Shown: piece by piece, positions 37,662-64,000 of the stretch
Position numbering within the stretch: the first letter of the stretch is position 1
Layout of the letters: each line of letters starts with the position of its first letter
DNA from: an uncultured Candidatus Rokubacteria bacterium
GTDB lineage: Bacteria; Methylomirabilota; Methylomirabilia; Rokubacteriales; CSP1-6
Assembly (NCBI GenBank): GCA_963789955.1
Contig: CAWBMV010000003.1
Location: 96,001 to 160,000 of the forward strand
DNA: 64,000 nt
Direction of reading: 5' to 3'
Notes under the pieces: model-generated
What the model saw: the letters and a program-made list of their open reading frames with translations, nothing else
Database searches by the model: none
Told to the model about the DNA's origin: nothing
Made by a program: the position numbers and the translations under genes

Positions 37662-37922
37662 ATGTCCCCGTCTGACGTCGGGATTGAGGCAGAGGTCGTT
37701 GCGATCGTGAAGCGCATCAGCCGCCAACCGGTCGAGCCGAGCGCCGAGAGTGACCTAGCGCTCGACCTCGGCTTCGATTCCATGCGCGTCTTCGAGTTGA
37801 TCGCCGCGCTCGAGGATCGCTTCGACGTCTCGATCCCATTGAACGACATCGAGACGATCCGGACCGTCGCTCAGGTGGGCGAGTACCTTCGCGACCTGAT
37901 CGAGCGGCCGGCTGGATGTTGA
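37662..37922 (+). CDS. Acyl carrier protein
   Basis: DLGFDSM phosphopantetheine site; acidic, 86 aa. Confidence 0.92.
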   Translation: MSPSDVGIEAEVVAIVKRISRQPVEPSAESDLALDLGFDSMRVFELIAALEDRFDVSIPLNDIETIRTVAQVGEYLRDLIERPAGC

Positions 37923-39595
37923 TGATCCGGACAGTCGCGCAGGCGCTCGACGACGCCGCGGCCGGCTCCGGCGGCTTCACGTTCGTCCGCGACAACGATC
38001 GCGAGCTCGTAACGCCGTTCAAGGTGCTGCGCGACTCGGCGCTTGCCGTGGGGGGCGCACTGCGCGCTCGTGGCCTCGATCGGGGCGACTGTGTCGCTCT
38101 CCTGATTCCGGAGGCCGATGGCTTTCTCACCGCCTTTCTTGGCGTTTCGCTGGCCGGTCTCGTGCCGATCCCGCTCGCGCATTCTCTCGACATCGGCCGG
38201 CTCGGCGCCGACGTCGAGAAGGTCGCGTCCTTCCTTCGTGTCGCCGGCGCGCGCGCGATCGTCACGAGCTCGCGCCTGCTCCCGTCGCTTCGCCCGTTGC
38301 AGTCGGTCGCGCCGACCGTGAAGCTCGTGGCCCCATGGAATGATCTTACCGGACCGGCGTTGGGAGCATCGGAGCCTGCCGACCCCGACGCGCCCGCGCT
38401 GCTCCAGTTCACCTCGGGCTCCACGTCGCAGCCGAGAGGTGTCGTCCTCACTCACGCCAACCTCTCCACGAACGTAGACGCGATCAGTGGGCCCCACGGC
38501 CTGGGGCTCGACCACACGGATATCGCTGTCAGCTGGCTGCCTCTGTTCCACGATATGGGCCTCATCGGCGTGGCCCTGTGTACGCTCTACGTCGGGTGCC
38601 GCGGCGTGTTCCTGTCGCCGGCGGAGTTTCTGAAGCGACCGGTGTCCTGGCTCCGTGCCATCACCCGGTATCGCGGCACGGCCAGCTTCGCTCCGAACTT
38701 CGCCTATGAGATGTGCGTGCGGCGGGTCAAGGATGCCGAGCTAGACGGTCTCGACCTGGCGTCGTGGCGCGTGGCCGGCTGCGGTGCAGAGCCGATCCAG
38801 GTGGCCACACTCCAGGCCTTTGCCACGAAGTTCGCGCACACCGGATTTCGCGCCGCGAGCCTGGTCGCCGCGTACGGCCTGGCGGAGCACACGCTCGCCG
38901 TCACCCTTGCGCCGCGCGATCGTGGCTTGCGCGTGGATGCCGTTCGCGCCCCGGAGCTGATCGCCCACGGGCGCGCCGTGCCCTGCTCCCCCGATTCTCC
39001 CGACGCTTCACGCCTCGTCGGTTGCGGCCGACCATTCCCAGACCACGCGCTCCGAGTGGTCGACGACGACGGCCAGCCAGTCGGGGAGCGCATCGTCGGC
39101 GAGATCCTCGTGTCCGGGCCTTCGGTGATGCGGGGTTACGTGAGCGCGCCGGACGCGACTGCCGGTGTCGTTCGAGAGCGCTGGCTCCCCACGGGCGACC
39201 TTGGGTATCTGGCCGACGGAGAGCTCTTCGTCTGCGGCCGCCGAAAGGAGATGATCATCGTCGGCGGTCGCAACTACTTTCCCCAGGACATCGAGCGAGT
39301 CGTGGATGAGGTGCCGGGTGTGCGTGCGGGGGGCGTGGCCGCGTTCGCGGCAACCGCCCCGGGACACCCAGACAGAGCGGTCTTGGTTGTCGAGACTCGC
39401 GGGCCGGTGTCTGCGGACGCGCTTCAGGCCGAGGTGCGGCGCCGGGTGCTCCAGGCGACTGGCCTCGCCGTTGACGAGATCGTCCTCGCGTCAAACGGGA
39501 CGATCGACCGAACGACCAGCGGCAAGCTCCGCCGGGCCGAGTTGCGCCAGCGATACGCGGCGGGGACGCTGGTTCCTCTAAGCGAGCGCGGGTGA
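37916..39595 (+). CDS. Fatty acyl-AMP ligase (acyl-ACP synthetase)
   Basis: LQFTSGSTSQPRGV, SWLPLFHDMGLIG, YGLAEHTL, TGDLGY, TTSGKLRR. Confidence 0.9.
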   Translation: MLMIRTVAQALDDAAAGSGGFTFVRDNDRELVTPFKVLRDSALAVGGALRARGLDRGDCVALLIPEADGFLTAFLGVSLAGLVPIPLAHSLDIGRLGADVEKVASFLRVAGARAIVTSSRLLPSLRPLQSVAPTVKLVAPWNDLTGPALGASEPADPDAPALLQFTSGSTSQPRGVVLTHANLSTNVDAISGPHGLGLDHTDIAVSWLPLFHDMGLIGVALCTLYVGCRGVFLSPAEFLKRPVSWLRAITRYRGTASFAPNFAYEMCVRRVKDAELDGLDLASWRVAGCGAEPIQVATLQAFATKFAHTGFRAASLVAAYGLAEHTLAVTLAPRDRGLRVDAVRAPELIAHGRAVPCSPDSPDASRLVGCGRPFPDHALRVVDDDGQPVGERIVGEILVSGPSVMRGYVSAPDATAGVVRERWLPTGDLGYLADGELFVCGRRKEMIIVGGRNYFPQDIERVVDEVPGVRAGGVAAFAATAPGHPDRAVLVVETRGPVSADALQAEVRRRVLQATGLAVDEIVLASNGTIDRTTSGKLRRAELRQRYAAGTLVPLSERG

Positions 39596-39605
39596 GGGGA
39601 GTCCC

Positions 39606-40844
39606 GTGACCCAGCGGAGCTTGTCCGGCGGCGATCTGTTCGACAAGTTGCGGGCCCTCGCAGTGCGCCGAGCGGAATTCGGGACCGAGGCCGCCTGCCC
39701 CGGTGACACCACCATCGACGAGGTGCTGAGCGCCTCAGAGGTCGTCATTCGCGGACGGCGCACGCTGATGCTCGGCTCGAACAACTACCTCGGTCTGACG
39801 TTTCACCCGGATGTGCGTGCGGCGGCGCGTGATGCCGTGGATCGTTACGGCATCGGCACCACGGGATCGCGCGCCGCCAACGGGACGCTGGCGATCCATA
39901 CGGCTCTCGAGCGGGACCTCGCGGGCCACTTTGGCAAGCGCCACGCCATCATCTTCACGACCGGCTACCAGGCGAACCTTTCCGTCATCGCCGGGGTCTG
40001 CCAAGCCGGGAACGTCCTGCTCGTGGACGCTGACAGCCACGCGAGCATCTTCGATGGGGCTCGGCTCTCGGGCGCGACGACGATCGTCTTCCGGCACAAC
40101 GCCCCCGAGGATCTCGCGCGAAAGCTGGCACGATTACCGAGCGGGAAGCGAGACCGTCTGGTCGTGGTCGAGGGCGTGTACTCCGTCCGAGGCGACGTCG
40201 CCCCGCTCAAGGACATCGTCGCGGTCTGCCGCGAGAATGGCGCCTATTTGCTGGTGGACGAAGCGCACTCGTTCGGCGCCTACGGTGCACGTGGTCTGGG
40301 CGTGGCGGAGTCCGAGGGTGTTCTCGACGACGTCGACTTCGTCGTCGGGACATTTTCGAAGGCACTCGGCGGCATCGGCGGCTTCTGCGTCTCCGATCGG
40401 TCGGAGCTCGAGAGCCTCCGTTTCCTGGCGCGGAGTTACGTCTTCACCGCATCAGGTTCGGCGGCGATGATCGAGGGTGTTCGAGCGGCGCTCCGGGTGA
40501 TCGCGCACGACCCGTCGCTGCGCGAGCGTCTCTGGGCGAACACGAGACGGTTGCGGGCGGGGCTCCAGGCCCTCGGCTGCACCGTCGGGCAGATCGAGTC
40601 GCCGATCGTCTCGATCCCGGTCGGCAACGAGGTGGCCGCGATCACGCTGTGGCAGCGTCTCCTCGACGCGGGCATCTATGTGAACATCATGCTGCCCCCG
40701 GCTTGTCCCCCCGATGCATGTCTGCTCCGCGCGAGCTGCTCGGCGGCGCACACCGCCGGGGAGATCGATCACGCGGCGGCCGTGATCTCACGAGTCGTGC
40801 GCGAGGCCGACGTCAAGCACGCGGCCGGCACCGAGAGCGACTAG
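39606..40844 (+). CDS. spt: Serine palmitoyltransferase-like alpha-oxoamine synthase
   Basis: GSNNYLGLTF, GSRAANGT, DADSHAS, EGVYS, DEAHS, DFVVGTFSK (PLP Lys), YVFTAS, LWQRLLDAGIYVN. Pattern follows Sphingomonas-type SPT rather than BioF, and it is operonic with ACP and FAAL. Confidence 0.85.
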   Translation: MTQRSLSGGDLFDKLRALAVRRAEFGTEAACPGDTTIDEVLSASEVVIRGRRTLMLGSNNYLGLTFHPDVRAAARDAVDRYGIGTTGSRAANGTLAIHTALERDLAGHFGKRHAIIFTTGYQANLSVIAGVCQAGNVLLVDADSHASIFDGARLSGATTIVFRHNAPEDLARKLARLPSGKRDRLVVVEGVYSVRGDVAPLKDIVAVCRENGAYLLVDEAHSFGAYGARGLGVAESEGVLDDVDFVVGTFSKALGGIGGFCVSDRSELESLRFLARSYVFTASGSAAMIEGVRAALRVIAHDPSLRERLWANTRRLRAGLQALGCTVGQIESPIVSIPVGNEVAAITLWQRLLDAGIYVNIMLPPACPPDACLLRASCSAAHTAGEIDHAAAVISRVVREADVKHAAGTESD

Positions 40845-42362: not shown

Positions 42363-44648
42363 ATGTTCCGCATTCTCGATCGCTACGTGTATCGCGAGAT
42401 GCTCCCCGTTTTCGCCCTCGCCACCGGTCTATTCACGTTCCTCCACGTGATGGACCGACTGAACGATTTCAGCAACATGGCCGCGAATGGCGCACCGCTT
42501 CACCTCGTGCTCCGGGTCTGGGGACTGCTGCTGGTGTCCTTCATGAGTCACACGCTCCCGATGGGCCTACTCCTGGCGGTCGTGATTACGGCCGGCCGCC
42601 TGACGTCCGACCTCGAAGTCGTGGGGTTCGGCGCCTTGGGAGTCAGCCCGCTCCGCCTGTTCCGTCCGTTCCTGGTCGCCTCGATCGTGGTGGCCATGAT
42701 GGTTGGAGCCCTGACGATGTGGATCAACCCATGGGGTTCCTCCGCCTTCTTCCGGTATCTGCGGGACCTCCGCCAGCATGCCGCCTTTCCTCTGATCCAG
42801 GAACGCACCTTCACCCGGGTCGGCGATGTCGTCATCTACGTTGACCGGAAGGATCTATCGACCTCGGCCCTCTCGGGCCTGGTCATCGGTGACGAGCGCG
42901 ACCCCAGCACGTTCGGGATCATCACGGCGCCGGTCGGGCGTCTGATCGACGACGCCGAACGTCGGAGGACGATCCTCAGGCTGACCGACGGCGCCGTCCA
43001 CGAGTCGCGGCCGGCGTCACCCAATTGGTACCGCGTGACGGCGTTCAAGGTCTACGACATGCCCCTCGACGTGACTGCCCCGATCGCCGAGGCTCAGAAA
43101 GAACTCGGAGCCGAGCGGAACGAGACGACGTGGGATCTCATGGAGAATACTCGCGCGCTGGATTTCACGCGAAAGGCCGAGCACGCGGAGATGTTCGTCG
43201 TCGAATTCCACAAGCGACTGGCCCTCCCGCTGGCCCCCATCGTCTTCGCCATGGTCGTCTTTCCCCTGGGCATCCGGCTTCAGCGCGGTGGGCGAGCCGT
43301 GGCGGCCGTGAGCGGCATCATGGTCTACCTGGTCCATCACGTCGTGCAGGAGGGTCTCGGTCGCGTCGCGGTGCTTCGTCCATGGGGCGGTGGACATTGG
43401 CTGCCGATCGCTCTGTTCGCGCTGCTCGGCGTCGTGCTCCTTTATTTCACAGCCCATCCGGCGCCGCCTGCCTGGCGACGTGGCGTGAGTCGTCTCCTCG
43501 AGCTCCTTCCGGCTCGCCTGTTGCCGTTTCGCCGCCTGCCGACTGGCCTGCGGCGTGACCGCACCCGGCGGCTTCGCCGGCAGAGCTCGATCATCGATCG
43601 GTACGTCGCGCGACAGTTCCTCATCTACGTCGGCTATGGATTGGGCCTGGCCACCGCCATCTTCGTCGTCGTCGATCTCGTGGAGACCTTGAGTCGCTAC
43701 CGGCCACCGTTGCAAGCCATTCTCGAACACTTCGGCTATCGCCTTCCCGCGGCGCTGCACCAGTCACTGCCCATCATCGTGCTCGTGGCCACCGTCTTCC
43801 TCTTCATGGAGCTCCAGAGATACAACGAGCTCACGGCGCTAAAGGCGTTGGGCCTGAGCCTTCACCGGGTCAGCCTGCCCGTTCTCGTCCTGGCGGGAGC
43901 GGTGAGCGTCGCGGCGTTCGTCTTCCAGGAGACGGCGGCGCCGGTCCTGAATGCCAAGGCCGACGAGCTCGACCGCGTGGAGATCCGCAAGGTCGCGGCT
44001 CGGGGGAGCGCTCCCAAATACCATTGGTACCGCCGTTCCGACACCGAGTTCGTCCGCATCGGCCGGCTCGATCGCGCTCTGCGCCAAGTGCAGGGCGTCA
44101 CGCTCGTTCAGACCGATGCGGCCTTCCGACTGGTCAAGCGGCTCGACGCGACCCACGCAGTCTGGGCTCCGGACGGCCTGGAGTTCGGGCAGAGCGTGCT
44201 GCGGGAGTTCGGCCCCGACAAGACGATGCGCACCACGTGGCAGGACGAGAAGCCGCGCCGTCTTGCCGACTCCCTCGAGGCACTCGGCGCGATGCCCGCG
44301 CCCTCGGCGATGACGTTCATGGAGCTGCGCGCCTACGTCCGCCACCTGCGCGAGAGGGGGCAGGCGGTCGGTACTCAGGTGCTGCGTCTGCACTCCAAGC
44401 TCTCGTTCCCCTTGATGAGCCTCGTGCTCGCCTTCCTGGCCATCTCGTTTACAGCGCGATGGCAGCGTGGCGGGCGCTTCGTCGGTGCGGCTCTCGCCGT
44501 CGTGATCGTGATCGCATACTCGATCGTCAACTCGGTCGCCCTCTCACTCGGCCGGGTCGACCTCTTGCCATCCGTCGTCGCCGCCTGGACGGCGACCATC
44601 GTGTTCGGCGGCATCGGAGTCGCGCTCTTCATCCGCGCGCCCACGTAG
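42363..44648 (+). CDS. Fused LptF-LptG permease
   Basis: Two tandem LptF/G units in one frame: ILDRYVYRE..EFHKRLALP and IIDRYVARQ..LHSKLSFP. Confidence 0.85.
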   Translation: MFRILDRYVYREMLPVFALATGLFTFLHVMDRLNDFSNMAANGAPLHLVLRVWGLLLVSFMSHTLPMGLLLAVVITAGRLTSDLEVVGFGALGVSPLRLFRPFLVASIVVAMMVGALTMWINPWGSSAFFRYLRDLRQHAAFPLIQERTFTRVGDVVIYVDRKDLSTSALSGLVIGDERDPSTFGIITAPVGRLIDDAERRRTILRLTDGAVHESRPASPNWYRVTAFKVYDMPLDVTAPIAEAQKELGAERNETTWDLMENTRALDFTRKAEHAEMFVVEFHKRLALPLAPIVFAMVVFPLGIRLQRGGRAVAAVSGIMVYLVHHVVQEGLGRVAVLRPWGGGHWLPIALFALLGVVLLYFTAHPAPPAWRRGVSRLLELLPARLLPFRRLPTGLRRDRTRRLRRQSSIIDRYVARQFLIYVGYGLGLATAIFVVVDLVETLSRYRPPLQAILEHFGYRLPAALHQSLPIIVLVATVFLFMELQRYNELTALKALGLSLHRVSLPVLVLAGAVSVAAFVFQETAAPVLNAKADELDRVEIRKVAARGSAPKYHWYRRSDTEFVRIGRLDRALRQVQGVTLVQTDAAFRLVKRLDATHAVWAPDGLEFGQSVLREFGPDKTMRTTWQDEKPRRLADSLEALGAMPAPSAMTFMELRAYVRHLRERGQAVGTQVLRLHSKLSFPLMSLVLAFLAISFTARWQRGGRFVGAALAVVIVIAYSIVNSVALSLGRVDLLPSVVAAWTATIVFGGIGVALFIRAPT

Positions 44649-52829: not shown

Positions 52830-54557
52830 ATGAGGGCGCAGCTTCGCGCGCTGTTCGGCATGGTGCTCGAGCAGCGGTGGCTCGTCGCGGTCGGCGGCGT
52901 GTTCGTGGCGGTCGGTCTCGTCGCGGCGCTGTCCTATCCGGTTCTCGTGAGGCGTTTGATCGACGAAGGCATTCTGGCCGGGCAGCGGTCGCGGGTCAAC
53001 GAGCTCGCGCTGCTGCTTCTCGTGCTGCTGGTGGCGGAGGGCGTCGCCACCGTCGTCCGCGACCACTACTTCAATCTCGCGGCCGAGCGTGTGACCACAC
53101 GGCTCCGCCAGCGCGTGTTCGACCACCTCTTGAGTCAGGAGATCGCCTTCTTCGACAGCCGCAACGTCGGCGAGCTGACGACCCGCTTGTCGGACGACGT
53201 CGCAGTGATCAACCGTGTCGTCGGCGACCGGCTGGCCGACGCGGTGCGGTCCGTACTGGTGGGAGTGCTCGGAACGGTGCTGCTCATCTACACGTCGCCG
53301 ATACTCACGCTGCTTCTCATGCTCGCGGTGCCGCCGATCGCCGTGGTGGCATGGGTGCTCGGAGGGCGTGTGAAGACTCTCTCCGCCGACACGCAGCAGG
53401 CGTACGCCGATGCCGGCATCATCGTCGAAGAGTCGCTCACGGGTATCCGCACCGTGCGTGCGTTCTCGCAGGAGACCTCTCTGGGCCTTCGCTACAGAGA
53501 CAAGCTCCAGGCGGGTGTCGAGCTCGCTCGGCGGCGGATCCTCGCGAACTCCACGCGGAGCGGCGTGTCATTCCTGGCCGGCGAAGGCGCGGCGCTGTTC
53601 GGCCTGTGGGCCGGCGCCAACCTCATCATCGAGAACCGTCTCACCTCCGGCGCAGTGATCTCATTCGTCCTGTATGGACTCCAGATCGCCCGTGGCCTCC
53701 GGAGTGCGTCGGATTTCTGGGGCGAGGCCGTGCGCGGGCTCGGCGCGACGCAGTGGATCTTCGAGCTGCTCGCGCGTGAGCCCCAGCTGCCGGTCGACGG
53801 CGGCGTCCAGCCCGCGCGCGTGGAGGGTGCCGTTACGCTCGACCGTGTGCACTTTCGGTATCCGGCCCGGCCGGACGTCGAGGCCCTGGCGGGCGTCGAT
53901 CTCAGCATCCGGCCCGGCGAGGTCGTGGCGCTGGTCGGACGCTCGGGAGCCGGCAAGTCGACCATCCTGAACCTGCTGCTCCGCTTCTATGATCCGGATG
54001 AGGGCCGGATCCTGGTCGATGGGCACGATATACGAACCCTCGACGCGACGTGGCTGCGGTCCCAGATCGGTGTGGTCATGCAAGAGCCGATGCTGTTCTC
54101 GGGAACCATCGCCGACAACATCCGGTATGGACTCGTCACACGAAGCGACAGCGAGGTGGCCGCGGCGGCCGAGCTGGCCAACGCCCGAGAGTTCATCGAG
54201 CGTTTCCCCGCCGGATTCGCGACCACGATCGGCACGCGAGGTGTCCAGCTATCGGGTGGCCAGCGGCAGCGTCTGGCGATCGCGCGGGGAGTACTGCGCC
54301 GACCGAGGATCCTCGTCCTCGACGAGGCGACGAACGCGCTCGATTCGGAAAGCGAGGCCTTCGTGCACAAGGCGCTGCAGGCGCTCGACTACCGCCCGAC
54401 GACGTTGATCATCGCCCACCGACTCTCGACGGTGATCAACGTCGATCGCGTCGTCGTTCTCGATCGCGGACGGATCGTTGAAACCGGCCGCCACGACGAG
54501 CTGCTCAAGACCTCGACGGTCTACCGCCAGCTCGTCGAAACGCAGCTCGGTGTCTGA
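52830..54557 (+). CDS. ABC exporter, fused TMD+NBD (MsbA/ABCB-like)
   Basis: GRSGAGKST, LSGGQRQR, LDEAT, IAHRLST. Confidence 0.92.
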   Translation: MRAQLRALFGMVLEQRWLVAVGGVFVAVGLVAALSYPVLVRRLIDEGILAGQRSRVNELALLLLVLLVAEGVATVVRDHYFNLAAERVTTRLRQRVFDHLLSQEIAFFDSRNVGELTTRLSDDVAVINRVVGDRLADAVRSVLVGVLGTVLLIYTSPILTLLLMLAVPPIAVVAWVLGGRVKTLSADTQQAYADAGIIVEESLTGIRTVRAFSQETSLGLRYRDKLQAGVELARRRILANSTRSGVSFLAGEGAALFGLWAGANLIIENRLTSGAVISFVLYGLQIARGLRSASDFWGEAVRGLGATQWIFELLAREPQLPVDGGVQPARVEGAVTLDRVHFRYPARPDVEALAGVDLSIRPGEVVALVGRSGAGKSTILNLLLRFYDPDEGRILVDGHDIRTLDATWLRSQIGVVMQEPMLFSGTIADNIRYGLVTRSDSEVAAAAELANAREFIERFPAGFATTIGTRGVQLSGGQRQRLAIARGVLRRPRILVLDEATNALDSESEAFVHKALQALDYRPTTLIIAHRLSTVINVDRVVVLDRGRIVETGRHDELLKTSTVYRQLVETQLGV

Positions 54558-55525
54558 TGAGCTCGCAGGACAGCAAGGCCCAATGCGGCATCGGCTGGCA
54601 GGGCTGGTGGCGCGGAACTCCCGCCGACCGCTGGACGCTCGGTTACGCGCTGGCCGTCGCAGTCGTGCTCGTCTGCCGTGTTCCTGCCGCCTACCTGCCC
54701 GTCGTCTTCGTAGTCCACGGCCTCCTCGTCGCGCTTGCGCTTCTGATGCCTCGAGCTCGGCGGTCCGGACCGGTCGGGCGCTTCGTCGGCGATTGGTATC
54801 CGTTGCTCATCTTGACGGCGCTCTACACTGAGATCGGGCTTGCCAACCTAGCCGACGGGCGGGCCTACGACCGGATCGTGCTGAGCTGGGAGCAAGCGCT
54901 GTTCGGCTTCCAACCTGCACGCGAGTGGATTCGCTCGAGCCCGTCAGTCTGGCTCTCCTGGGTCCTGCATCTCGGGTACCTGGCGTACTACGCCATCATT
55001 GTCGCGGCGCCGCTCGCTCTCTGGCTCACCCGACAGCGGGAGGCGATGCAGCGAGCCGTGACGACTATCACGGCCACCTTCTACCTCTGCTACGCGACGT
55101 ACCTTGTCTTCCCCGTCGTCGGGCCCCGGCACGTGTTCCCGGCGGCGGACAACGCCGCGGCGCAGACCGCCATTGCGCAGTGGACGGCGCGGTTCCTCGA
55201 ACACGTGTCTGCATGGGGCGCCGCGTTCCCGTCGAGCCACGTCGCGGTCGCCGTTGCCGCTACGGCCGTGGCACTTCTCGAGTGGCGGGTGCTCGGCCTC
55301 GCGCTCGTGGTCCCGACCACGCTGTTGACCCTCGGCAGCGTGTACGGGCAGTTCCACTACGCCGTCGACGCACTGGCGGGGATCGGCGTCGGGCTCGCGG
55401 TGGCGCTTGGTGCCTGGCTCGTGTCGCGAAAGGGCGCCACCGCGATAGAAGTGGCCCCGGGACTCGGCATGACGCGACAGCCGCCTATGCCTCCGGCCGA
55501 TCGCCGGAACAGTTTTCCGACGTGA
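54557..55525 (+). CDS. PAP2-superfamily membrane protein, AUR1/IPC-synthase-like
   Basis: YLVFPVVGPR, AAFPSSHV, FHYAVD; coupled to the ABC gene (TGATG). Confidence 0.75.
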   Translation: MSSQDSKAQCGIGWQGWWRGTPADRWTLGYALAVAVVLVCRVPAAYLPVVFVVHGLLVALALLMPRARRSGPVGRFVGDWYPLLILTALYTEIGLANLADGRAYDRIVLSWEQALFGFQPAREWIRSSPSVWLSWVLHLGYLAYYAIIVAAPLALWLTRQREAMQRAVTTITATFYLCYATYLVFPVVGPRHVFPAADNAAAQTAIAQWTARFLEHVSAWGAAFPSSHVAVAVAATAVALLEWRVLGLALVVPTTLLTLGSVYGQFHYAVDALAGIGVGLAVALGAWLVSRKGATAIEVAPGLGMTRQPPMPPADRRNSFPT

Positions 55526-55567: not shown

Positions 55568-56296
55568 CTACGAGCGGAGCGTGCCGAACACGCGGTCCCA
55601 GAGCGGACTGGACACGCCGAACTGTATCTCCGGCGTGCGAAAGTGGTGCGTGAGGTGATGGTGACGGAGGTAGCGCGCGACACGACCCCGGAGCGAGCCG
55701 GCGTGGCAGGCGTAGTGGAGCAGGTCGTAGACCAGGTAGCCGAAGATCGCACCGGCGAAGACCGGCGCAGATGCCGTCCCGACCAGCAACCGCAGCACAA
55801 AGAACAGAAAGGCCGCCACCGGCACCGTGACGATCGGCGGCATGAGCCAGCGGCGCCGGTCTTCGGGGAACGCATGGTGGACACCGTGAATCAAGTACGC
55901 GAACAGGACGCCGAGCCGGCCGCGGGGCGTCAAGTGGAACACGAAGCGATGAAGCAGATACTCCATCGCTGTCCACAGCACGACCCCGCCACCGAAAAGG
56001 AGGGAAGATACGAGAGGCGACCATCCCGCCACGACTCCCGCCCAGACGAAGTAGGCCGAGACCGGCAGATAGATCAAGACCAGCGTCCGAGGTCGCGTGC
56101 CCGTGAACCACTCGAGGAATGGGTGATTGAACATCTGGGGCTGTCCAGGCCGCGGCGCTCCCCAGTCGTGCACACTGAGTGTCACGGGACCGACAAGGGT
56201 CATAGGGCCGGTTGGGAACCGACGGAAAGTGGACGACCACATCGCGCGTGCCGAGGCGTCCGGCGGCTGCAGAAGACTACCGCGCGCTTGATTCAC
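55568..56296 (-). CDS. Fatty-acid 2-hydroxylase (SCS7/FA2H-like)
   Basis: WTAMEYLLHRFVFH, IHGVHHAFP..MPP, YDLLHY, HHLTHHF, FGVSSPLWDRVFGT. Confidence 0.85.
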   Translation of the reverse strand: MNQARGSLLQPPDASARAMWSSTFRRFPTGPMTLVGPVTLSVHDWGAPRPGQPQMFNHPFLEWFTGTRPRTLVLIYLPVSAYFVWAGVVAGWSPLVSSLLFGGGVVLWTAMEYLLHRFVFHLTPRGRLGVLFAYLIHGVHHAFPEDRRRWLMPPIVTVPVAAFLFFVLRLLVGTASAPVFAGAIFGYLVYDLLHYACHAGSLRGRVARYLRHHHLTHHFRTPEIQFGVSSPLWDRVFGTLRS

Positions 56297-56397: not shown

Positions 56398-57382
56398 GTG
56401 CGCGTGCTGGTGACCGGGGCGACCGGGCTCTTGGGCGCCAATGTTGTGCGGGCTCTCCTCGGGGCCGGCCATGCGGTGCGCGCAGCGGTCAGGGCTTCCT
56501 CGAGGCAACTCGCGCTCACGGACTTGCCCGTGGAGACATCGGTACTGACGCTGGAGGAGCCCGAATCGGTGGCAGCAGCGATGGCCGGGTGTCAGGCCGT
56601 TGTCCACGCGGCGGCGGCTAATTGGGTCGGCCGGAGCGGGCGAGCGTGGATGGAGCGGGTCAACGTGCAGGGCACCGAAGCGGTGTGCAGAGTCGCCTTG
56701 GAGACCGGTATTCGCCGTATGGTCCACGTCTCATCGGTCGACACGCTCGGTATCCGCTCCCTCGAGCACCCCGCCGACGAGGAGTGCCGATCTGATCTGG
56801 CGCACCTGCGTTGCCCCTACATCGACACGAAGAGAGCCGCCGAGGACGTCGTCCTCGGTCACGTGGCGCTGGGACTCCCCGCCGTGATCGTCAACCCAAC
56901 CTTTATGCTGGGCCCCTGGGACACCCGTCCTACTTCAGGTCGAATGCTCCTGGAGATCGCCAAGGGATGGGCGCTTCTCGCCCCGCGGGGCGGGAACTGC
57001 TTTCTGGACGTGCGCGACGCGGCGATCGGGGTCGTTGCTGCACTGGAAAGAGGGCGGGTGGGTCGGCGCTACATCTTGGGAGGCCAGAACCTCACATACC
57101 TCGACGCCTGGCGACGGATCGCCCCAATCGTCGGAGGGCGCGGGCCCCTCGGTACTGCCCCGTCCGCTGGCGCCTGGCTCCTCGGTCGTGCAGCCGGCTT
57201 CTGGGGGCGGCTCAGAGGTCAAGGAGCCCGTAGTCAATCCAGTCAGCGTGGCCATGGGCGAACTGCCGCATTACTTCAGCTCCGCTCGAGCCCGCGCCGA
57301 GCTGAACTTCCCCGAGAGCGACTTCGAGCGCGCCGTCTCGGACGCTTGGCGCTGGTTCCGAGAGCACGGCTATGCGCCCTGA
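56398..57382 (+). CDS. Extended SDR reductase (dihydroflavonol-reductase/HpnA-like); indel near 57220
   Basis: VLVTGATGLLG, YIDTK, VNPTFMLGP. C-terminus YFSSARARAEL..WFREHGY is in the next frame. Confidence 0.82.
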
Positions 57383-57434
57383 CAATGGTTTCCGCATTGC
57401 GCGGAGTGGCGCGAAGAGCCTAAGGCGCGTGTTT

Positions 57435-58148
57435 TCAGCGGTGCGCCAAGAGCCGACGGAATTCCGCGAGCTCGCGCGGCGGCACGTCCGACCGTTCGCG
57501 GAGCGCGGCGTCGACGCGGCCCGGGTCGTCGTCGATCGCGCGCGCGGTCTTCGCGATGTCGCCGACGATGCGCGTCGTCACCTTCATGGCTCGGGGCGCC
57601 ACGACCGCGTGGAACAACCGGGCCAGCGCTTCGAACGCGGCGTTGTCGATCCGGACGAAGCTGGCCATCGCCGGCGTGATGAGGCTCTTGCCGTCTGCTT
57701 GCGGCTTGATGGTGTAGTCGAGGAGCACCACGACGCGCCCGTGGATCGCGGGCAAAACCTGTGGTTGGTAGCGGCCCTGCAGATAGAAGATGCGGCTGCC
57801 TCGCGTCGCATACGCGATCCGGAACCGCACCAGGGCTCCCGCGGTGTCGTCGAGCCAGAGCCCATCGGGCTCACGCCAGATCCGATAGCGACCGATCTCG
57901 AGTGCCCGGATCACATGTGTCGCGAAGTCAGGGTGATCGAGCAGGTATTCGAACACGTCGTCCCGCACGAGAAAGGATTCGCCGTTCGACTGCGCAGTAA
58001 CCGACGCGTTCTCGGTGACCTGCTCCAGGCGAGCTCGCTCCGGCTCCGGCAGATCCGGGGGCAGCGCCGCCGTGGGCCAGGTCGCGAGGGCGCTCCCCAC
58101 GAAGATGAAGAGCAGGCCGACACCGGCGGCTCCGACTCTGATGGTCAT
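57435..58148 (-). CDS. Hypothetical exported protein
   Basis: Signal-like N-terminus, FEYLLDHPDFA, coherent composition; divergent from the GNAT gene. Confidence 0.65.
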   Translation of the reverse strand: MTIRVGAAGVGLLFIFVGSALATWPTAALPPDLPEPERARLEQVTENASVTAQSNGESFLVRDDVFEYLLDHPDFATHVIRALEIGRYRIWREPDGLWLDDTAGALVRFRIAYATRGSRIFYLQGRYQPQVLPAIHGRVVVLLDYTIKPQADGKSLITPAMASFVRIDNAAFEALARLFHAVVAPRAMKVTTRIVGDIAKTARAIDDDPGRVDAALRERSDVPPRELAEFRRLLAHR

Positions 58149-58207
58149 CGCAGCGCGTCCAGTATACGTCGCTGACTTGATTCGGTAGTACGAGCTACAC
58201 TCGGCCA

Positions 58208-59335
58208 ATGGCGCCTCTCGAGATCATTCGCGCCGAGACCGGGAGTGCCTTTCGCGCGTTCATCGACCTCCCGTATCGCCTCTATCGAGACCACCCGCAC
58301 TTCGTGCCTCCCCTGCGGCGGGAGCGCCGCGATCTCTTCGACAAGGCGCGGCACCCGTTCTTCCGCCATGCCGACGGCGCATTCTTCCTCGCCCGCCGCG
58401 GCGGCCAACCGGTCGGCCGCATCGAAGCCATCGTCAATCACGCGCACAATCAGTTCCATGACGATCGGGTCGGGTTCTTCGGCGCGTTTGAAAGCGAAAA
58501 CGACCGGGCGGTGTCCGACGCCTTGCTCGAAAGCGCCGCTCGGTGGCTCGGTGAGCGGGGATTGCAAGTCATGCGGGGCCCCGTCACTCACTCCACCAAC
58601 GAGGAGACGGGGCTGCTGATCGAGGGGTTCGAGGAGCCACCAATGATCGGGATGCCCTACAATCCGCCGTACTACGCCATGCTGGTCGAGGCCTTCGGCC
58701 TCACCAAGGCCAAGGACGTCTACGGCTGGGAGATCCGTGCGGAACAGACGATACCTGAGAAGATCCACCGCGTGGCCGACATCGTGCGGAAGAGCACGAA
58801 CGTCGTCGTTCGCCGGGCGAACTTCGCAGACTACGCCGGCGAGATTCGGCGGGCTATGGGTGTCTACAATGCCTCCTGGACGCGCAACTGGGGGTTCGTC
58901 CCGCTCACCGAGGCCGAGTTCGTTCACGCCGCCGATCAACTACGACCCGTCCTCGAGCGCTTCCCGGAAGGGGTGTTGTTGGCTGAGGTAGCCGGACGAG
59001 CGGTCGGTTTCTGCCTGGCCGCGCTGGACGTCAATCAAGCGCTCCGACGAGTGCGGAATGGGCGGCTCTTTCCGTTCGGGTTCTGGCATCTCTATCGCGG
59101 ACTCCGGCGCGTCGACCAGATTCGCGTGATGGCGCTCGGTATTCTTCCCGAGTTCCGGCATCGCGGCATCGATGCGGTCATTTACCTCGAGCTCTTGAGT
59201 CACGGCCAGCGCCTCGGCTATCGGCGCGCGGAGATCGGTTGGACACTCGAGGACAACCGTGCGATGAATCGAGCGATCCTCATGGGCGGCCGTCATCACA
59301 AGACGTACCGCCTCTACGAGGCGCCGCTACCCTGA
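58208..59335 (+). CDS. Double-GNAT N-acyltransferase, bacterial ceramide synthase (bCerS)-like
   Basis: FIDLPYRLY..VPPL, HPFF, VGRI, GFFGAFE, GLLIEGF..MPYNPPYY, NWGFVPLT, LGILPEFRHRG, WTLEDN, KTYRLY. Confidence 0.78.
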   Translation: MAPLEIIRAETGSAFRAFIDLPYRLYRDHPHFVPPLRRERRDLFDKARHPFFRHADGAFFLARRGGQPVGRIEAIVNHAHNQFHDDRVGFFGAFESENDRAVSDALLESAARWLGERGLQVMRGPVTHSTNEETGLLIEGFEEPPMIGMPYNPPYYAMLVEAFGLTKAKDVYGWEIRAEQTIPEKIHRVADIVRKSTNVVVRRANFADYAGEIRRAMGVYNASWTRNWGFVPLTEAEFVHAADQLRPVLERFPEGVLLAEVAGRAVGFCLAALDVNQALRRVRNGRLFPFGFWHLYRGLRRVDQIRVMALGILPEFRHRGIDAVIYLELLSHGQRLGYRRAEIGWTLEDNRAMNRAILMGGRHHKTYRLYEAPLP

Positions 59336-59350
59336 TGTAAGCCGTTCTGC

Positions 59351-59379
59351 TTGACATCGTTCCCTGCCTGCCATTAACT
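59351..59379 (+). promoter_or_regulatory. Sigma-70-type promoter for the FAS-II operon
   Basis: TTGACA-N17-TTAACT, about 70 nt upstream of ATG 59450. Confidence 0.55.
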
Positions 59380-59449
59380 CGGGCCTACGCTCTCTCCAGC
59401 CGAGCCTCAGCGCTCGCTGGCCACTACCATTGGGTACGAGGGACATCGA

Positions 59450-60223
59450 ATGGGATCCTGTCGCGGCCGTGTGGCCTTGGTCACCGGCAGCTCGCGTGGA
59501 CTGGGTCGAGTCATTGCACGGAAGCTGAGCGAGGCCGGCGCTGACCTGATCATCAACTATCGTCAGGCCGGTGGCCGCTCGGAGGCCCAGGCTCGAGCCC
59601 TCGCCAAGGAGCTCGTGGAGGGCGGATCCCGCGCGGTGGCCATCCAAGCCGATATCGGCCAGAAGGACGCCGTCGCCGCCATGTTCCAGCAGATCGGCGC
59701 CGAGTTCGGACGGCTGGACATCCTCGTGCTCAACGCGGCGCGCGCTCCCTTCAAGAAGGCCGGCGAGCTTCTCAAGCGCGACCTTCTCGAGCTCGTCGAG
59801 ACCAACTACCTCGGAAATGTCTACTGCATGCAGCAGGCTCTGCCGCTGATGCAGGGCCGCCCGGGTCACGTCGTGTTCATCTCCAGTCTCGGCAGCCGCT
59901 TCGCGCTGCCGAACTACCCGCTTGGTAGCATGAAGGCGGCCATGGAAAGCCTCGTGAAACAGTGGGCGACCGAGCTCGGGGATCGTCAGATCACCGTGAA
60001 CGGCGTCACGGTCGGCCTGCTCAAGACGGATTCGCTGATCGTGCTGCGTCAGTACTGGCCCGGTGTGGAACGGCTGCCGCCGTCTGCGTTCGTCGAGCTG
60101 GAGGACGTGGCCGGAGTCGTGCTGTTTCTCTGTACAGACGCCGCGCGGAGCATCAGGGGCCAGAACCTCGTTGTCGACAACGGACTTTCCAACGAGCTCT
60201 TGCACTCTGCGCACAGTTCCTGA
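59450..60223 (+). CDS. Enoyl-ACP reductase (FabL-like SDR)
   Basis: TGSSRGLG, LNAA, SSLGS, NYPLGSMKAAME (Tyr-Lys spacing longer than YxxxK). Confidence 0.75.
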   Translation: MGSCRGRVALVTGSSRGLGRVIARKLSEAGADLIINYRQAGGRSEAQARALAKELVEGGSRAVAIQADIGQKDAVAAMFQQIGAEFGRLDILVLNAARAPFKKAGELLKRDLLELVETNYLGNVYCMQQALPLMQGRPGHVVFISSLGSRFALPNYPLGSMKAAMESLVKQWATELGDRQITVNGVTVGLLKTDSLIVLRQYWPGVERLPPSAFVELEDVAGVVLFLCTDAARSIRGQNLVVDNGLSNELLHSAHSS

Positions 60224-60265
60224 CATCAGCGATCGCCTCATTGAGAGGAGGTCCACGAGGGGAGA

Positions 60266-60841
60266 ATGCCCGAGCCATTGATCAGCCAGGCCACGATTTA
60301 TCGAGCGGTGCAAACCGCCATCGGCGACGCGCTGCAGATCTCCGAAGACAAGGTGATGCCCGAGAGCTCGCTCATCAAAGACCTCGGAGTGGAGTCGCTG
60401 GATCTCATCGACATCAACTTCCGCCTCGAGCAAGACTTCAACATCGTGATGCCGCGCAAGTACCTCCTGGACCACGTGGAGGAGCTCTTCGGGGAGGGGA
60501 CGGCGATCGACGAACAGGATCGACTCACCGGCGCGGCCGTGACGATCTGGAACGCGCGGCTCGGGTCGGCCGGATCGGCCGTGCACGCGGGCATGTCGAT
60601 CGAAGCGGTACCGGCTCTCGTCACTCCGCACACGCTGGTCATGGTCGTCGAGGAGATCTTGGCCACCTGTCCGGCCACGTGCCCTGCTTGCGGGAAGTCG
60701 GCCTGGACGGTCGCCGATGGACGCGCCATCACCTGCGGCCAGTGCGGTGCGCGCGCGCCGCTCTTGGCGGGTGACGATGTCATCCGTCAGTGGCTCGAGG
60801 ACTTCCGGGCACGCGGTGGGCTGACGAGCCACACGCCTTGA
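60266..60841 (+). CDS. Extended acyl carrier protein with internal insertion and C-terminal CxxC..CxxC domain
   Basis: DLGVESLDLIDINFRLE, then CPATCPACG..CGQCG; GAGAGGAGG/GGGAG RBS. Confidence 0.85.
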   Translation: MPEPLISQATIYRAVQTAIGDALQISEDKVMPESSLIKDLGVESLDLIDINFRLEQDFNIVMPRKYLLDHVEELFGEGTAIDEQDRLTGAAVTIWNARLGSAGSAVHAGMSIEAVPALVTPHTLVMVVEEILATCPATCPACGKSAWTVADGRAITCGQCGARAPLLAGDDVIRQWLEDFRARGGLTSHTP

Positions 60842-62145
60842 CCAGCGCGTCACGCCAGACACGGGATCGGCGGCGCGTTGTCATCACCGGCGTGGGGATG
60901 ATCACCCCCCTGGGACGGAACGTGGCCGAAACGTTCGAGCGGGCTAGCCGGGGCGTCTCGGGAATTGACTACATCCGTCGCTTCGACACCCGCGGTCTTC
61001 CCGTTCGAATCGGCGGCGAGATTTCGGACGAGTGGATCGTGCGGCCGCGCGCGGAATCGGCGGCGGCGCTCGAGAGCATGGCCTCCAGGGCGATCCGATT
61101 CATGTGGACCGCGGGCATGGAGGCGGCCGAGCAGGCGAAGCTCGACCAGATAGGTGATCGCTATCGGGTCGGTGTCGTCCTCGGCCATCACGGAGAGACC
61201 GCCGGCCTCGACGATCTCGTCCGGATCTTTCGGGCGTCGGCCGGCGATGGTCGGTGGGACCCGGCCCAGCTCCGCGAGGGCGGCTACGACGTGTTCGCAT
61301 CGATACGCCGACGGGTCGACGTCGGACCGTCGCTGGTCTCGCGGGTGTTCGATTGTCGCGGGCCCAGCATTGGCATCGCCTCGGCGTGCGCCGCCGGCGG
61401 CCAGGCGATCGGTGAGGCCTACCGGCTCATCAAGTCGAGGCGTCTGGATGCCGCGCTGGCTGGCGGGTGCGAGGCATCGCTCACGTACCTGGGACTCTCG
61501 GGCTTCATACTCCTGAAGGCCCTCACCGAGCACTATCACGCTCCATCGACGGCGTCCCGACCGTTCGATCGCAAGCGAAGCGGCTTCGTGATCTCCGAGG
61601 GAGCGGGCGCGCTCGTCCTCGAAGAGCTCACGCACGCCCGGGACCGTGGCGCATCGATCCTGGGCGAGCTCCTGGGCTATGGAGACTCCACGGACGCGTA
61701 CCGCATCACGGACATCCACCCGCAGGCCGAGGGCGCCGTGCTGGCGATGGTGCGCGCGATCGAGGACGCCGGGATCGCGCGCGACAAGGTGGACTATATC
61801 AACGCGCACGGGACCTCGACCGTGCAGAACGACGCGCTCGAGACCCTTGCCGTCAAGCGAGTCTTCGGCGAGCGAGCGGCCTCTGTCCCGCTCAGCTCGA
61901 ACAAGTCGATGCTCGGTCACACCATCGGTGCGGCCGGGGCCATCGAGGCCGGTCTCACGCTCGAGGGCATCCGTCAATCGCTGCTCCTCCCCACGATCAA
62001 CTACAAGACACCGGATCCGCGATGCGACCTGGACTACGTGCCAAACGAGTCGCGTCGTGTTGCCCACCGGACCGCCCTCAGCAACTCCTTCGGGTTCGGC
62101 GGGCACAACGCCTCGGTTTGCATCGGCGCGTACGACGACGGCTGA
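60838..62145 (+). CDS. fabF: Beta-ketoacyl-ACP synthase II
   Basis: RVVITGVG, SACAAG (Cys), YINAHGTST (His), KSMLGH (His), SNSFGFGG. Confidence 0.92.
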   Translation: MTSASRQTRDRRRVVITGVGMITPLGRNVAETFERASRGVSGIDYIRRFDTRGLPVRIGGEISDEWIVRPRAESAAALESMASRAIRFMWTAGMEAAEQAKLDQIGDRYRVGVVLGHHGETAGLDDLVRIFRASAGDGRWDPAQLREGGYDVFASIRRRVDVGPSLVSRVFDCRGPSIGIASACAAGGQAIGEAYRLIKSRRLDAALAGGCEASLTYLGLSGFILLKALTEHYHAPSTASRPFDRKRSGFVISEGAGALVLEELTHARDRGASILGELLGYGDSTDAYRITDIHPQAEGAVLAMVRAIEDAGIARDKVDYINAHGTSTVQNDALETLAVKRVFGERAASVPLSSNKSMLGHTIGAAGAIEAGLTLEGIRQSLLLPTINYKTPDPRCDLDYVPNESRRVAHRTALSNSFGFGGHNASVCIGAYDDG

Positions 62146-62609
62146 TGCGCTTCCTCTTCATCGACCGGGTCACGAGTCTCGAGCGAGGGCGTCGCATCAC
62201 GGGGATCAAGTCATTCAGCTCGTCCGAGCCGTTTCTGGAGTCGCACTTCACCAGAACAGCCCTCGTCCCGGGCGTGCTTCTCATCGAGTCGATGGCGCAG
62301 CTTCTTGGTTGGCTGGCCAGCTATTCGTACGATTTCCGCTGCGTGGCCGTTCTGGCCCTCATCTCGGACGTGACGGTTCCGGCGGCCCTGAAGCCCGGAG
62401 CCCGCGTGGAGATCGAAGGCCGACTACTGTCCAGCACCGAGCGAGACTCGCTCGGTGCTGCCACGGCCACGGTTGATGGCCGGACGATCGCCCGGGTGGA
62501 GCGACTCATTTTGCACCACGTTCCACTTCCCAAAGGGGAAACCGCGCGGGAGTTCTTCCTCTACTACGCCGGCATCGACGACTTGTCGTCTCTCGAGCGT
62601 CCCGCATGA
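62145..62609 (+). CDS. fabZ: FabZ-like hot-dog dehydratase
   Basis: MRFLFIDRV, HF..PGVLLIESMAQ. Confidence 0.85.
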   Translation: MRFLFIDRVTSLERGRRITGIKSFSSSEPFLESHFTRTALVPGVLLIESMAQLLGWLASYSYDFRCVAVLALISDVTVPAALKPGARVEIEGRLLSSTERDSLGAATATVDGRTIARVERLILHHVPLPKGETAREFFLYYAGIDDLSSLERPA

Positions 62610-63359
62610 AGATCGATCTCAGCGGGCAGGTCGCATTGGTCACGGGCGGCGGTCGCGGCATTGGTGGAGCCTGCAGCGTGACCCTGGCGCGACTGGGGGC
62701 AACGGTCATCATCAACTACCGGCGCTCCCGCGACTCCGCCGAACGGCTCGAGAAGGACATCGTCGGTGAGGGCGGCAGCGGGCGCGCGTACCAGGCCGAC
62801 GTGGCGGACCCCGGAGCGGTCGACGCGATGTTCCAGTTCATCCGCCAGGAATATCGACGCCTCGACATCCTGGTGAACAACGCGGGGATCGTTCAGGACA
62901 CCCTGCTGCTCTCCATGACGCTGCAGGACTGGACGTCGGTCCAATGCCACCAATCTGACCGGCGCCTTTCTCTGCACGCGCCACGCCGTGGAAATGATGT
63001 TGCGGCAAGGCGGGGGCAAGATCGTCAATATCGCTTCGGCGAGCGCGGACGTCGGTGGACGCGGGCAGACCAACTACGCGGCCTCGAAGGGCGGGCTCGT
63101 GGCATTCAGCCGGGCGGGCGCCGTCGAGCTGGCCCGCAAGGGGATTCGCATCAACGCCGTGCTGCCCGGTATCATCGAGACCGACATGAGCCTGCCAGTA
63201 CGCCAGCGGGCCGCGAACAAGCTGCTCGAGCGCATTCCGGCCCGTCGATTCGGCCGCGTTGACGAGGTCGCCAACCTGGTTGCCTTCCTCGTCTCGGATG
63301 CCTCGGAGTACATCGTCGGACAGGCGATCGCCGTCGATGGCGGTCTCAGCGCCTCCTGA
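62606..63359 (+). CDS. fabG: 3-oxoacyl-ACP reductase; indel near 62945
   Basis: TGGGRGIG and VNNAG, then GQTNYAASKGG and PGIIETDM in the next frame. Confidence 0.88.
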
Positions 63360-63370
63360 CGCGTCGGCCC

Positions 63371-63859
63371 GTGCGCTATTACCTCGTAGATCGCATATCG
63401 GAGTGGGAGCTCAACACGCGCATCCGCGGCATCAAGAATGTCGCTATGACCGAAGACTTCCTCCAGTATCACTTTCCGCGAAGGCCGACGATGCCGGGGG
63501 TGCTCCTGCTGGAGTCGATGACCCAGCTTGCCGGCTGGCTGGAGGCGGTCAGCTCCGAGTTTACGCGCTGGTTCCTGCTCGAGCACGTCACGAGCTGTAA
63601 GTTTTACGACCTCACAGGGCCTGGCGACCGGGTCGAGTTCGTCGTCGACGCCATGCAGCCCGCCGAGGCGTCTCGCCGCCGTTATCGCGGAACCGGCAGC
63701 GTCGAGGGTAAGCGGCGTGTCGTCGCCGAGTTCGACGGGCAGGTGATTCCGCTCCACGACATCGACACCCCGTCGAGCCAGCGCCAGCTCTTCGAAGTGC
63801 TCACGAACAGCGCTACTTTCTCGCTCAGTCCCAATCCAGGTGTCGCGGGCCCCCCGTGA
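63371..63859 (+). CDS. fabZ: Second FabZ-like dehydratase
   Basis: YLVDRI, KNV, HFPRRPTMPGVLLLESMTQ, PGD. Confidence 0.85.
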   Translation: MRYYLVDRISEWELNTRIRGIKNVAMTEDFLQYHFPRRPTMPGVLLLESMTQLAGWLEAVSSEFTRWFLLEHVTSCKFYDLTGPGDRVEFVVDAMQPAEASRRRYRGTGSVEGKRRVVAEFDGQVIPLHDIDTPSSQRQLFEVLTNSATFSLSPNPGVAGPP

Positions 63860-64000
63860 CCGACCGAGTTCCCGCGATCACCGGCATAGGGTTGATTTCA
63901 TCCCTCGCCCCATCCCTCGAGCGTCACTGGCAACGGATTCTTCAGCTCGCGACCGGTATTCGGCAGGTCAGCGGCGAGGACGTACCCCGAGCCCTTCGTT
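63856..64000 (+). CDS. Start of a second ketosynthase-like gene, truncated by the window edge
   Basis: GTG overlapping the previous stop; VTDRVPAITGIGLISSL..HWQRILQLATGI. Confidence 0.7.
   Translation, partial: MTDRVPAITGIGLISSLAPSLERHWQRILQLATGIRQVSGEDVPRALR

Follow-up and report, generated by a model that had tools for sequence, protein, structure and literature searches.

A predicted zinc-ribbon acyl carrier protein of a type II KS-CLF module next to a ceramide synthase-like gene in a Rokubacteria-like genome

Four described systems come closest to the locus reported here. The canonical acyl carrier protein (ACP) AcpP has about 78 aa. In the rhizobial cluster acpXL-fabZXL-fabF2XL-fabF1XL-lpxXL, a specialised enlarged ACP of about 93 aa (AcpXL, without a ribbon) is combined with its own ketosynthase pair, a dehydratase and an acyltransferase. 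The koreenceine cluster kecA-K of Pseudomonas koreensis leads to an alkaloid with a C14 chain, and the pathway proposed in the available part of PMC6498172 comprises condensation, reduction and transamination only. Finally, bacterial ceramides are made by the AasR-AcpR-Spt-CerS-CerR system of Caulobacter and E. coli BL21, for which the accessible text of PMC9386255 names yghO as the ceramide N-acyltransferase gene and describes the bacterial CerS as an acyl-CoA N-acyltransferase. In the available sections of PMC9386255 and PMC11324152 and in the loci L104 and L105, these clusters contain neither a dedicated fatty acid synthase (FAS) module nor a large ACP for the second chain.

The window, i.e., the whole stretch of 64,000 nucleotides that was analyzed, belongs to a Rokubacteria-like genome (G000) and holds a 191-aa ACP gene within the following operon:

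59450..60223, + strand: FabL-like short-chain dehydrogenase/reductase (SDR), probable enoyl-ACP reductase (best NCBIfam match FabL at 194.7 bits, below the cut-off of 328)
60266..60841, + strand: ribbon-type ACP, 191 aa, the subject of this work (PF00550 27.3 bits, cut-off 20.8; model pLDDT 90, pTM 0.87)
60395..60397, + strand: Ser44 codon, phosphopantetheine attachment site (sole invariant column in 69 diverse homologues)
60449..60595, + strand: helical insert of ~50 aa (residues ~62-110) between ACP helices II and III, boundaries approximate
60680..60745, + strand: ribbon Cys139-x2-Cys142-x14-Cys157-x2-Cys160, probable structural Zn site
60770..60811, + strand: C-terminal helix 169-182, beginning at a conserved GD motif and retained where the ribbon is deleted
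60838..62145, + strand: KS1, ketosynthase predicted to be active from its Cys-His-His residues
62145..62609, + strand: FabZ-like dehydratase 1 (PF07977)
62606..63359, + strand: FabG-like ketoreductase (the frameshift near 62945 comes from an assembly error; 3 of 3 DNA runs lack the extra base)
63371..63859, + strand: FabZ-like dehydratase 2
63856..64000, + strand: start of KS4, chain-length-factor-like ketosynthase with Ser at the catalytic Cys position (continues to G000:C3:161157)

The original prediction of a 191-aa ACP with a DLGVESLD site and a C-terminal Cys ribbon in one frame, coupled to the downstream ketosynthase, was borne out by the reading frame, the profile match and the structural model. 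A single open frame on the + strand (60266-60841) encodes DLGVESLD, which includes Ser44, and CPATCPACG-x13-CGQCG; a GGAG site lies a few bases 5' of its ATG, and its stop overlaps the TTG start of the ketosynthase at 60838 (TTGA). The PP-binding profile PF00550 above its cut-off, together with the conserved serine, assigns the protein to the ACPs. It resembles canonical AcpP in the four-helix core and the DSL-type serine motif, but remains below the cut-off in all AcpP equivalog scores, and the AcpXL model PRK06508 gives 40.6 against a cut-off of 83 over residues 11-73. A separate, housekeeping-type ACP of the canonical kind is encoded beside a fabF on contig C12 of the same genome. The four-cysteine domain was correctly foreseen as far as the CxxC-x14-CxxC pattern is concerned, which is conserved, although the protein has five cysteines (135, 139, 142, 157 and 160), of which Cys135 is not conserved. 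Two CxxC pairs spaced by 10-20 residues occurred in only 4 of 20,000 shuffles of the ACP sequence.

The AlphaFold2 model, built from 37 homologues (pLDDT 90, pTM 0.87), contains helices at 8-23, 44-58, 67-75, 89-105, 112-118, 121-132 and 169-182 and two short strands at 147-157. In a structural search, the ACP fold was placed on residues 1-137, with Z values of 9-10 to solved ACPs, rmsd of 1.5-2.7 and 78-85 aligned residues (range about 75-95); AcpXL aligned at Z 9.1 over 95 residues. This placement leaves ~50 residues as an insertion separating helices II and III, and it puts the ribbon after helix IV. The insert after helix II had thus been anticipated, whereas the ribbon does not directly adjoin it, since in the predicted model helices III and IV (112-118, 121-132) return between the insert (~62-110) and the ribbon (~136-165). 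As modelled, the window protein combines an ACP that carries an internal lobe with a ribbon and helix at its C-terminus. Sequence and model agree on two CxxC knuckles with a beta-hairpin between them, the arrangement of a zinc ribbon. No match at E 0.001 or better was returned by Foldseek against the PDB, and among the matches listed in PDB sequence searches, only the N-terminal half of the ACP was aligned. The ribbon modelled on its own reached a pTM of 0.47 and a best Z of 2.7 in the fold search, and its Atlas search gave no usable match.

A fusion created by sequencing or annotation was the alternative that had been raised at the outset, and indel errors in the surrounding assembly (57221, about 62945) speak in its favor. 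The extra single bases at these two positions are lacking in 3 of 3 short-read DNA runs of near strains, and another one at 57407 is lacking in 2 of 3; the frameshifts in the epimerase gene upstream and in fabG are therefore assembly errors. The ACP gene, however, is covered gap-free by near-strain short-read contigs in 2 of 3 DNA runs (run X3 contig 58922-60879 spans the whole gene, and X2 contig 59612-60791 reaches through both Cys pairs), and the four-Cys motif recurs in independent homologues. The fusion as an assembly error is refuted, and the chance of any artefact is negligible. An RNA run (X15) gave short contigs over parts of the operon, which are not evidence of transcription.

The fusion and its cysteines are conserved, as the original prediction had proposed to check. 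A protein search returned 68 database proteins matching the ACP, mostly of 185-191 aa; at E up to 0.001, there were 881 representatives, many of them ordinary ACPs. Within the 137 matches of 165-245 aa, 111 carry the four-Cys motif, and the 26 without it include fragments, unrelated long ACPs and one real clade of nine proteins (one member named Nitrospinota) that lost three of the four ribbon cysteines and kept one. An alignment of 69 rows, hand-picked for full length and diversity (20-77% identity), shows an invariant Ser44 and has each ribbon Cys in 90% or more. GTDB genomes were searched with ACP-core patterns; 193 relatives were confirmed, 80 kept, and three phylum loci added, and the four cysteines are retained in 82 of these 83 loci, with x14 spacing in 74. 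The closest relatives among the 80 kept loci come from Rokubacteria/Methylomirabilota (55-78%), followed by Nitrospirota, Syntrophobacteraceae and others. A sample of 201 genomes from the organism's own phylum contained six with the full-length form and about 15 with a form of 130-150 aa that has the insert and lacks the ribbon; the helical insert is also present in ribbon-less ACPs of ~130-145 aa. The family also occurs in cultured bacteria, among them Pseudomonas and Nocardia brasiliensis. In N. brasiliensis (P0082/P0288) and Acidobacteriota (P0086, P0087), the ribbon ACPs are distant members of 205-219 aa. Plasmid searches yielded no full-length ribbon ACP. A description of a ribbon on an ACP was not found in the literature within reach of our search, which extended to few subscription papers.

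The family nevertheless has a member that has been handled in the laboratory. In a profile alignment (hhalign), Pseudomonas ACPs matched the window group at 99.7% (E 3.5e-26, 174 columns), and a Pseudomonas-type ACP shares 28% identity with the window ACP over 183 aa. This full-length homology to the KecA-type ACP includes the insert, the four Cys and the C-terminal helix. The Pseudomonas loci run acp, four ketosynthases, a 968-aa class III aminotransferase fusion, two SDRs and export genes, which is the layout of kecA-K in the accessible part of PMC6498172. An SDR of these loci matches PDB 9NG1, named PpFabG4/PP_2783 in PMC12490732, and the PP_2777 cloning primers in Table S3D of its supplement match both ends of the 189-aa ribbon ORF in locus L146 (27/28 and 22/22 bases, by eye); the legend of Fig. 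S3 in the same supplement equates PP_2777-2784 with P. koreensis genes. The window ACP family thus includes P. putida PP_2777, orthologue of the koreenceine protein KecA, as traced through primers, locus layout and figure legend rather than the KecA or KT2440 sequences. Across 35 Pseudomonas-type loci, 32 of 32 full-length ACPs have the four cysteines. Common to both systems are the family, the length (189 aa in kec), the insert, CxxC-x14-CxxC, the GD-helix and KS-CLF partners, while kec differs by two KS-CLF pairs, a reductase-transaminase release enzyme and a C14 alkaloid product; no FabZ-like gene was seen in kec-type loci, and the reductase-transaminase KecF and the export genes kecI-K are absent from the window operon and the genes after it. 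A kec-like cluster of Photobacterium encodes a 152-aa ACP from which the ribbon is cleanly deleted and in which the last helix is kept; some lineages can evidently do without the ribbon. The koreenceine-like cluster at L137:14971-29075 (Photobacterium sp. DA100) is unannotated.

According to the available part of PMC12490732, purified PP_2777 supported no PpFabH2 or PpFabG4 activity in a reconstituted E. coli FAS, even though PpFabG4 comes from its own cluster, and the authors ascribe to it "an unusual predicted structure" while also allowing for misannotation. Failure in the E. coli FAS is what would be expected of an insulated carrier, and the result suggests as much, but it may also reflect poor phosphopantetheinylation. 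No mention of a ribbon or metal was found in the accessible portions of the KecA/PP_2777 literature. The original statement that no ACP with a metal-binding ribbon had been characterised thus stands for the ribbon itself, which is undescribed, but not for the protein, as PP_2777 was purified and assayed and the cluster product is known from P. koreensis.

The surroundings of the ACP are also conserved. In 79 of 82 loci, the gene immediately upstream encodes a FabL-like SDR, and in 79 of 80, the next gene downstream is KS1, while 30 of 83 ribbon-ACP loci have their own AcpS. The long form of the operon reads fabL, acp, KS1, KS2, fabZ1, KS3, fabG, acpS, fabZ2, KS4 and an LpxL-type acyltransferase; the window holds the short form, i.e., fabL, acp, KS1, fabZ1, fabG, fabZ2 and KS4. 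The catalytic Cys is found in KS1 and KS3 and is absent from KS2 and KS4, which resembles the KS-CLF pairs of type II systems, in which a ketosynthase with the catalytic Cys is accompanied by a paralogue without it. Every reducing step is encoded in the window operon, in which no FabD or FabH gene was seen. Compared with the AcpXL cluster, the window-type module adds its own FabG, a FabL-like enzyme, a second FabZ and often AcpS. In a Binatia locus (L066:12941-20533), the ribbon-ACP operon is followed by LpxL-type, condensation-domain, DUF374, PAP2 and Kdo hydroxylase genes.

The operon directly follows a putative ceramide synthase gene, and further candidate sphingolipid genes lie upstream in the window:

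37662..37922, + strand: small ACP, AcpR-like (38% to the E. coli cluster ACP, its only match)
37916..39595, + strand: acyl-ACP synthetase, AasR-like (best genome match, 37%)
39606..40844, + strand: serine palmitoyltransferase, SPT (SPT structures at E 5e-108 to 4e-84, next family at E 4e-59; 48% to the E. coli cluster enzyme)
42363..44648, + strand: fused LptF/LptG permease that may export sphingolipids (two stretches match PF03739; role assigned by analogy with the available part of PMC11324152)
52830..54557, + strand: MsbA-type ABC exporter, possible flippase (role inferred)
54557..55525, + strand: PAP2_3 membrane protein (PF14378), possible head-group transferase (role inferred)
55568..56296, - strand: fatty acid hydroxylase family protein (PF04116; not conserved at other ribbon ACPs, 0 of 83 loci)
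56398..57423, + strand: NAD-dependent epimerase/reductase, CerR candidate (frameshifted at 57221 by an assembly error)
57435-58208, - strand: conserved 257-aa protein without a Pfam or NCBIfam match (flanked by epimerase and cerS in close relatives; in L120, located upstream of fabL)
58208..59335, + strand: GNAT acyltransferase, apparently of the bacterial ceramide synthase (CerS/YghO) type (33.5% to E. coli YghO over 376 aa; sole copy in the genome)

The CerS-like GNAT gene ends 115 bases before fabL. Its assignment follows from full-length homology to YghO/ECD_02850 and linkage to spt, and no solved relative was found. The intact orthologue of the CerR candidate is 29% identical to the E. 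coli cluster epimerase and 28-39% to epimerases linked to spt or cerS; at 29%, the CerR assignment is weak. Thus, acpR, aasR, spt, a cerS-like gene, an epimerase and LptF/G are all in the window, with acpR-aasR-spt 17 kb upstream across glycosyltransferase genes; in the relatives, spt is on other contigs. Altogether, 37662-59335 forms a near-complete sphingolipid island that also contains glycosyltransferases and a LicD-family gene; a literature report of such an island in Rokubacteria was not found. Compact epimerase-spt-cerS operons, unlinked to the ribbon-ACP operon, were seen in Nitrospirota (L133-L136; genomes G213, G233, G231 and G222). A complex prediction of the CerS-like protein with the ACP and Zn scored 0.08 (mark 0.32) and was not used as evidence.

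Most relatives of the ribbon ACP end their operon with another enzyme, as the AcpXL cluster does. An LpxL-type gene closes 24 of the 27 long loci that hold KS4, and in five of five genomes tested, it is the only full-length PF03279 match (two have an extra partial match). Orthologues of the operon-type LpxL, at 51% or more, were found in 44 of the 46 genomes behind L007-L052. This genome, in contrast, lacks a linked LpxXL/LpxL acyltransferase in its operon; the best match to the operon-type LpxL is 30% in G000 and at most 34% in its three closest relatives. In these four genomes, cerS lies directly upstream of fabL, and the three relatives have an spt orthologue (80-83%). At the sister locus L006, an LpxL-type gene (43%) is present, and searches for cerS and spt gave no match. 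Ribbon-less modules with a 135-aa ACP are likewise joined to LpxL in L122-L124 and to cerS/aasR in L117-L118. On the ACP tree, which comes from a quick, unfinished search with SH-aLRT support only and two rows skipped, the cerS-linked groups fall in two separate clades (SH-aLRT 95 and 93). Judged by gene content, lineages differ in their release enzyme: most relatives have an LpxL type, Pseudomonas has a reductase-transaminase, and the lineage studied here has a CerS-like GNAT. The switch to cerS appears twice on this tree, and for ribbon ACPs it would be one event in four closely related genomes. Genome-wide searches for cerS and LpxL covered the loci other than L053-L082 (30 of 80). As cerS-like genes are common in the phylum sample (57 of 201 genomes, against 26 of 50 ribbon-ACP genomes), co-occurrence was not used as evidence, only adjacency.

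Taken together, we propose the following route. KS1 and its chain-length-factor partner KS4 would extend an acyl starter on the phosphopantetheine of Ser44, and every round would be reduced by enzymes that the module itself encodes, namely FabG, two FabZ and the FabL-like enzyme. The insert, the ribbon and the last helix would form an extra lobe, in which the four Cys hold one structural Zn that stabilises it; structural zinc binding is probable. The lobe would fit the carrier to its own KS-CLF pair and reductases and not to the housekeeping FAS, and such a role in insulation, docking and partner selection is slightly favored. The finished chain would pass to whichever release enzyme the lineage has attached. 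In the Rokubacteria-like lineage, the CerS-like GNAT would place it on a sphingoid base from AcpR/AasR/SPT, and the resulting ceramide would carry a special N-acyl chain, plausibly an extended one. As the operon lies directly behind the ceramide synthase-like gene, it probably supplies a special fatty chain for bacterial sphingolipids, and ceramide is a reasonably probable acceptor; against it, the lpxC and two other LpxL-family genes of this genome could take the chain, CerS is described as acyl-CoA-using, and spt is 17 kb away. Whether the chain exceeds C18 is evenly balanced. The joint reading, in which the ACP is the zinc-ribbon carrier of a self-contained, highly reducing type II KS-CLF module supplying the ceramide N-acyl chain, has in our view an even chance of being correct in all its parts.

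Lipid A is the obvious competing destination. The module would then be an AcpXL-like very-long-chain system whose product is transferred by an unlinked LpxL-family enzyme, with cerS as a mere neighbor in an envelope island. The frequent closing LpxL gene, its standing as the sole full-length PF03279 match, the lpxC and two LpxL-family genes of G000 (unlinked to the operon) and the Nitrospirota loci, which often adjoin bamA-skp-lpxD-fabZ-lpxA-lpxI-type genes, all agree with this, but the missing operon-type orthologue in G000 and its three relatives (30-34% versus 51% or more) and the recurrence of cerS adjacency in a second, separate ACP clade make it unlikely. Somewhat less probable still is a product other than the N-acyl chain, either an unusual precursor of the long-chain base, made for SPT, or a metabolite that is secreted. 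L118 does cluster a 135-aa ACP with an SPT-like gene, aasR and cerS; however, SPT has its own acpR-aasR in one operon. Nocardia has no lipid A, and members of the family occur there; in Pseudomonas, the available cluster descriptions have modules of this family making secreted alkaloids. A secreted product is countered by the genes after KS4 in G000, which include no thioesterase, reductase-transaminase or other release enzyme. In the same genome, a second LpxL-family gene and genes for an ACP, a ketosynthase and AcpS share a stretch of about 20 kb (G000:C37:218481-238658), another specialised acylation cluster, and runs of carrier domains in long ORFs (C34:174900-225400 and C1:535100-543100) mark large NRPS/PKS clusters.

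As to the lobe, an enlarged acyl pocket for long chains had been the original prediction, and the insert, placed after helix II and before helix III, does adjoin the pocket; AcpXL (2kw2) ranks high among the sequence matches and aligns over 95 residues, and the KS-CLF pairs with LpxL resemble the rhizobial very-long-chain cluster (available part of PMC5613085). The architecture of KecA, however, 28% identical over 183 aa, carries the 14-carbon koreenceine intermediates (PMC6498172, as far as accessible), so ACP size does not imply very long chains. Pocket enlargement is not supported as a general rule, and a lobe that mainly enlarges or caps the pocket to shelter very long chains is improbable; a long chain may still be made in this genome but is not implied by the size of the ACP. 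For the metal site, docking or redox had been suggested; a site that binds metal and serves docking or structure is the most likely reading, whereas redox is not supported as a general rule. In the redox version, the four Cys would form a rubredoxin-like iron site that donates electrons to a hydroxylase or desaturase, whose substrate would be the bound chain or ceramide. Weak matches to the Pfam family RUBY_RBDX, the rubrerythrin rubredoxin-like model, were indeed more frequent than those to any other (14 of 19 ribbons with E up to 1; lowest E 4e-4), and a fatty acid hydroxylase gene lies 4 kb upstream in the window. Yet Zn-ribbon models did similarly (RRN7 12 of 19, best 7e-5), none passed its cut-off for the window ribbon, and classical rubredoxin (PF00301) was not among the matches listed for the ribbons. 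No hydroxylase or desaturase recurs in the ribbon-ACP loci (0 of 83), and the proposed koreenceine pathway is without oxidation, so that a redox ribbon has no evident job there although all 32 Pseudomonas-type proteins keep the four Cys. With the ribbon deleted in the koreenceine-like cluster and three Cys lost in the nine-protein clade, this electron-transfer reading is very improbable; iron binding as such is less likely than zinc. A LysW-like amino-carrier was dropped, as the C-terminal Glu motif is missing.

New in this work are the tie to KecA/PP_2777, the variable release enzyme including a CerS-like GNAT, and a ribbon for which we found no previous description. A broader and rather doubtful possibility is that a giant, zinc-stapled ACP forms the core of a modular and orthogonal type II synthase with lipid A, ceramide or alkaloid as outputs, which in Rokubacteria-like soil bacteria serves as a dedicated very-long-chain ceramide elongase; if true, it would be a bacterial counterpart of the eukaryotic elongase-CerS route. 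The available part of PMC11334938 reports unexplained C32-C39 N-acyl sphingolipids from the Black Sea, and one may speculate that such a module is a candidate type of source for them. Textbook ACPs have 80 residues, and a widespread, metal-binding, lobed form would be a new way to separate parallel fatty acid pathways, which would be of use in synthetic biology. The PP_2777/KecA tie takes the family beyond uncultured genomes into genetically tractable Pseudomonas, where products can be read out by mass spectrometry, and the cerS link hints at the way in which the second ceramide chain is chosen or built in some bacteria.
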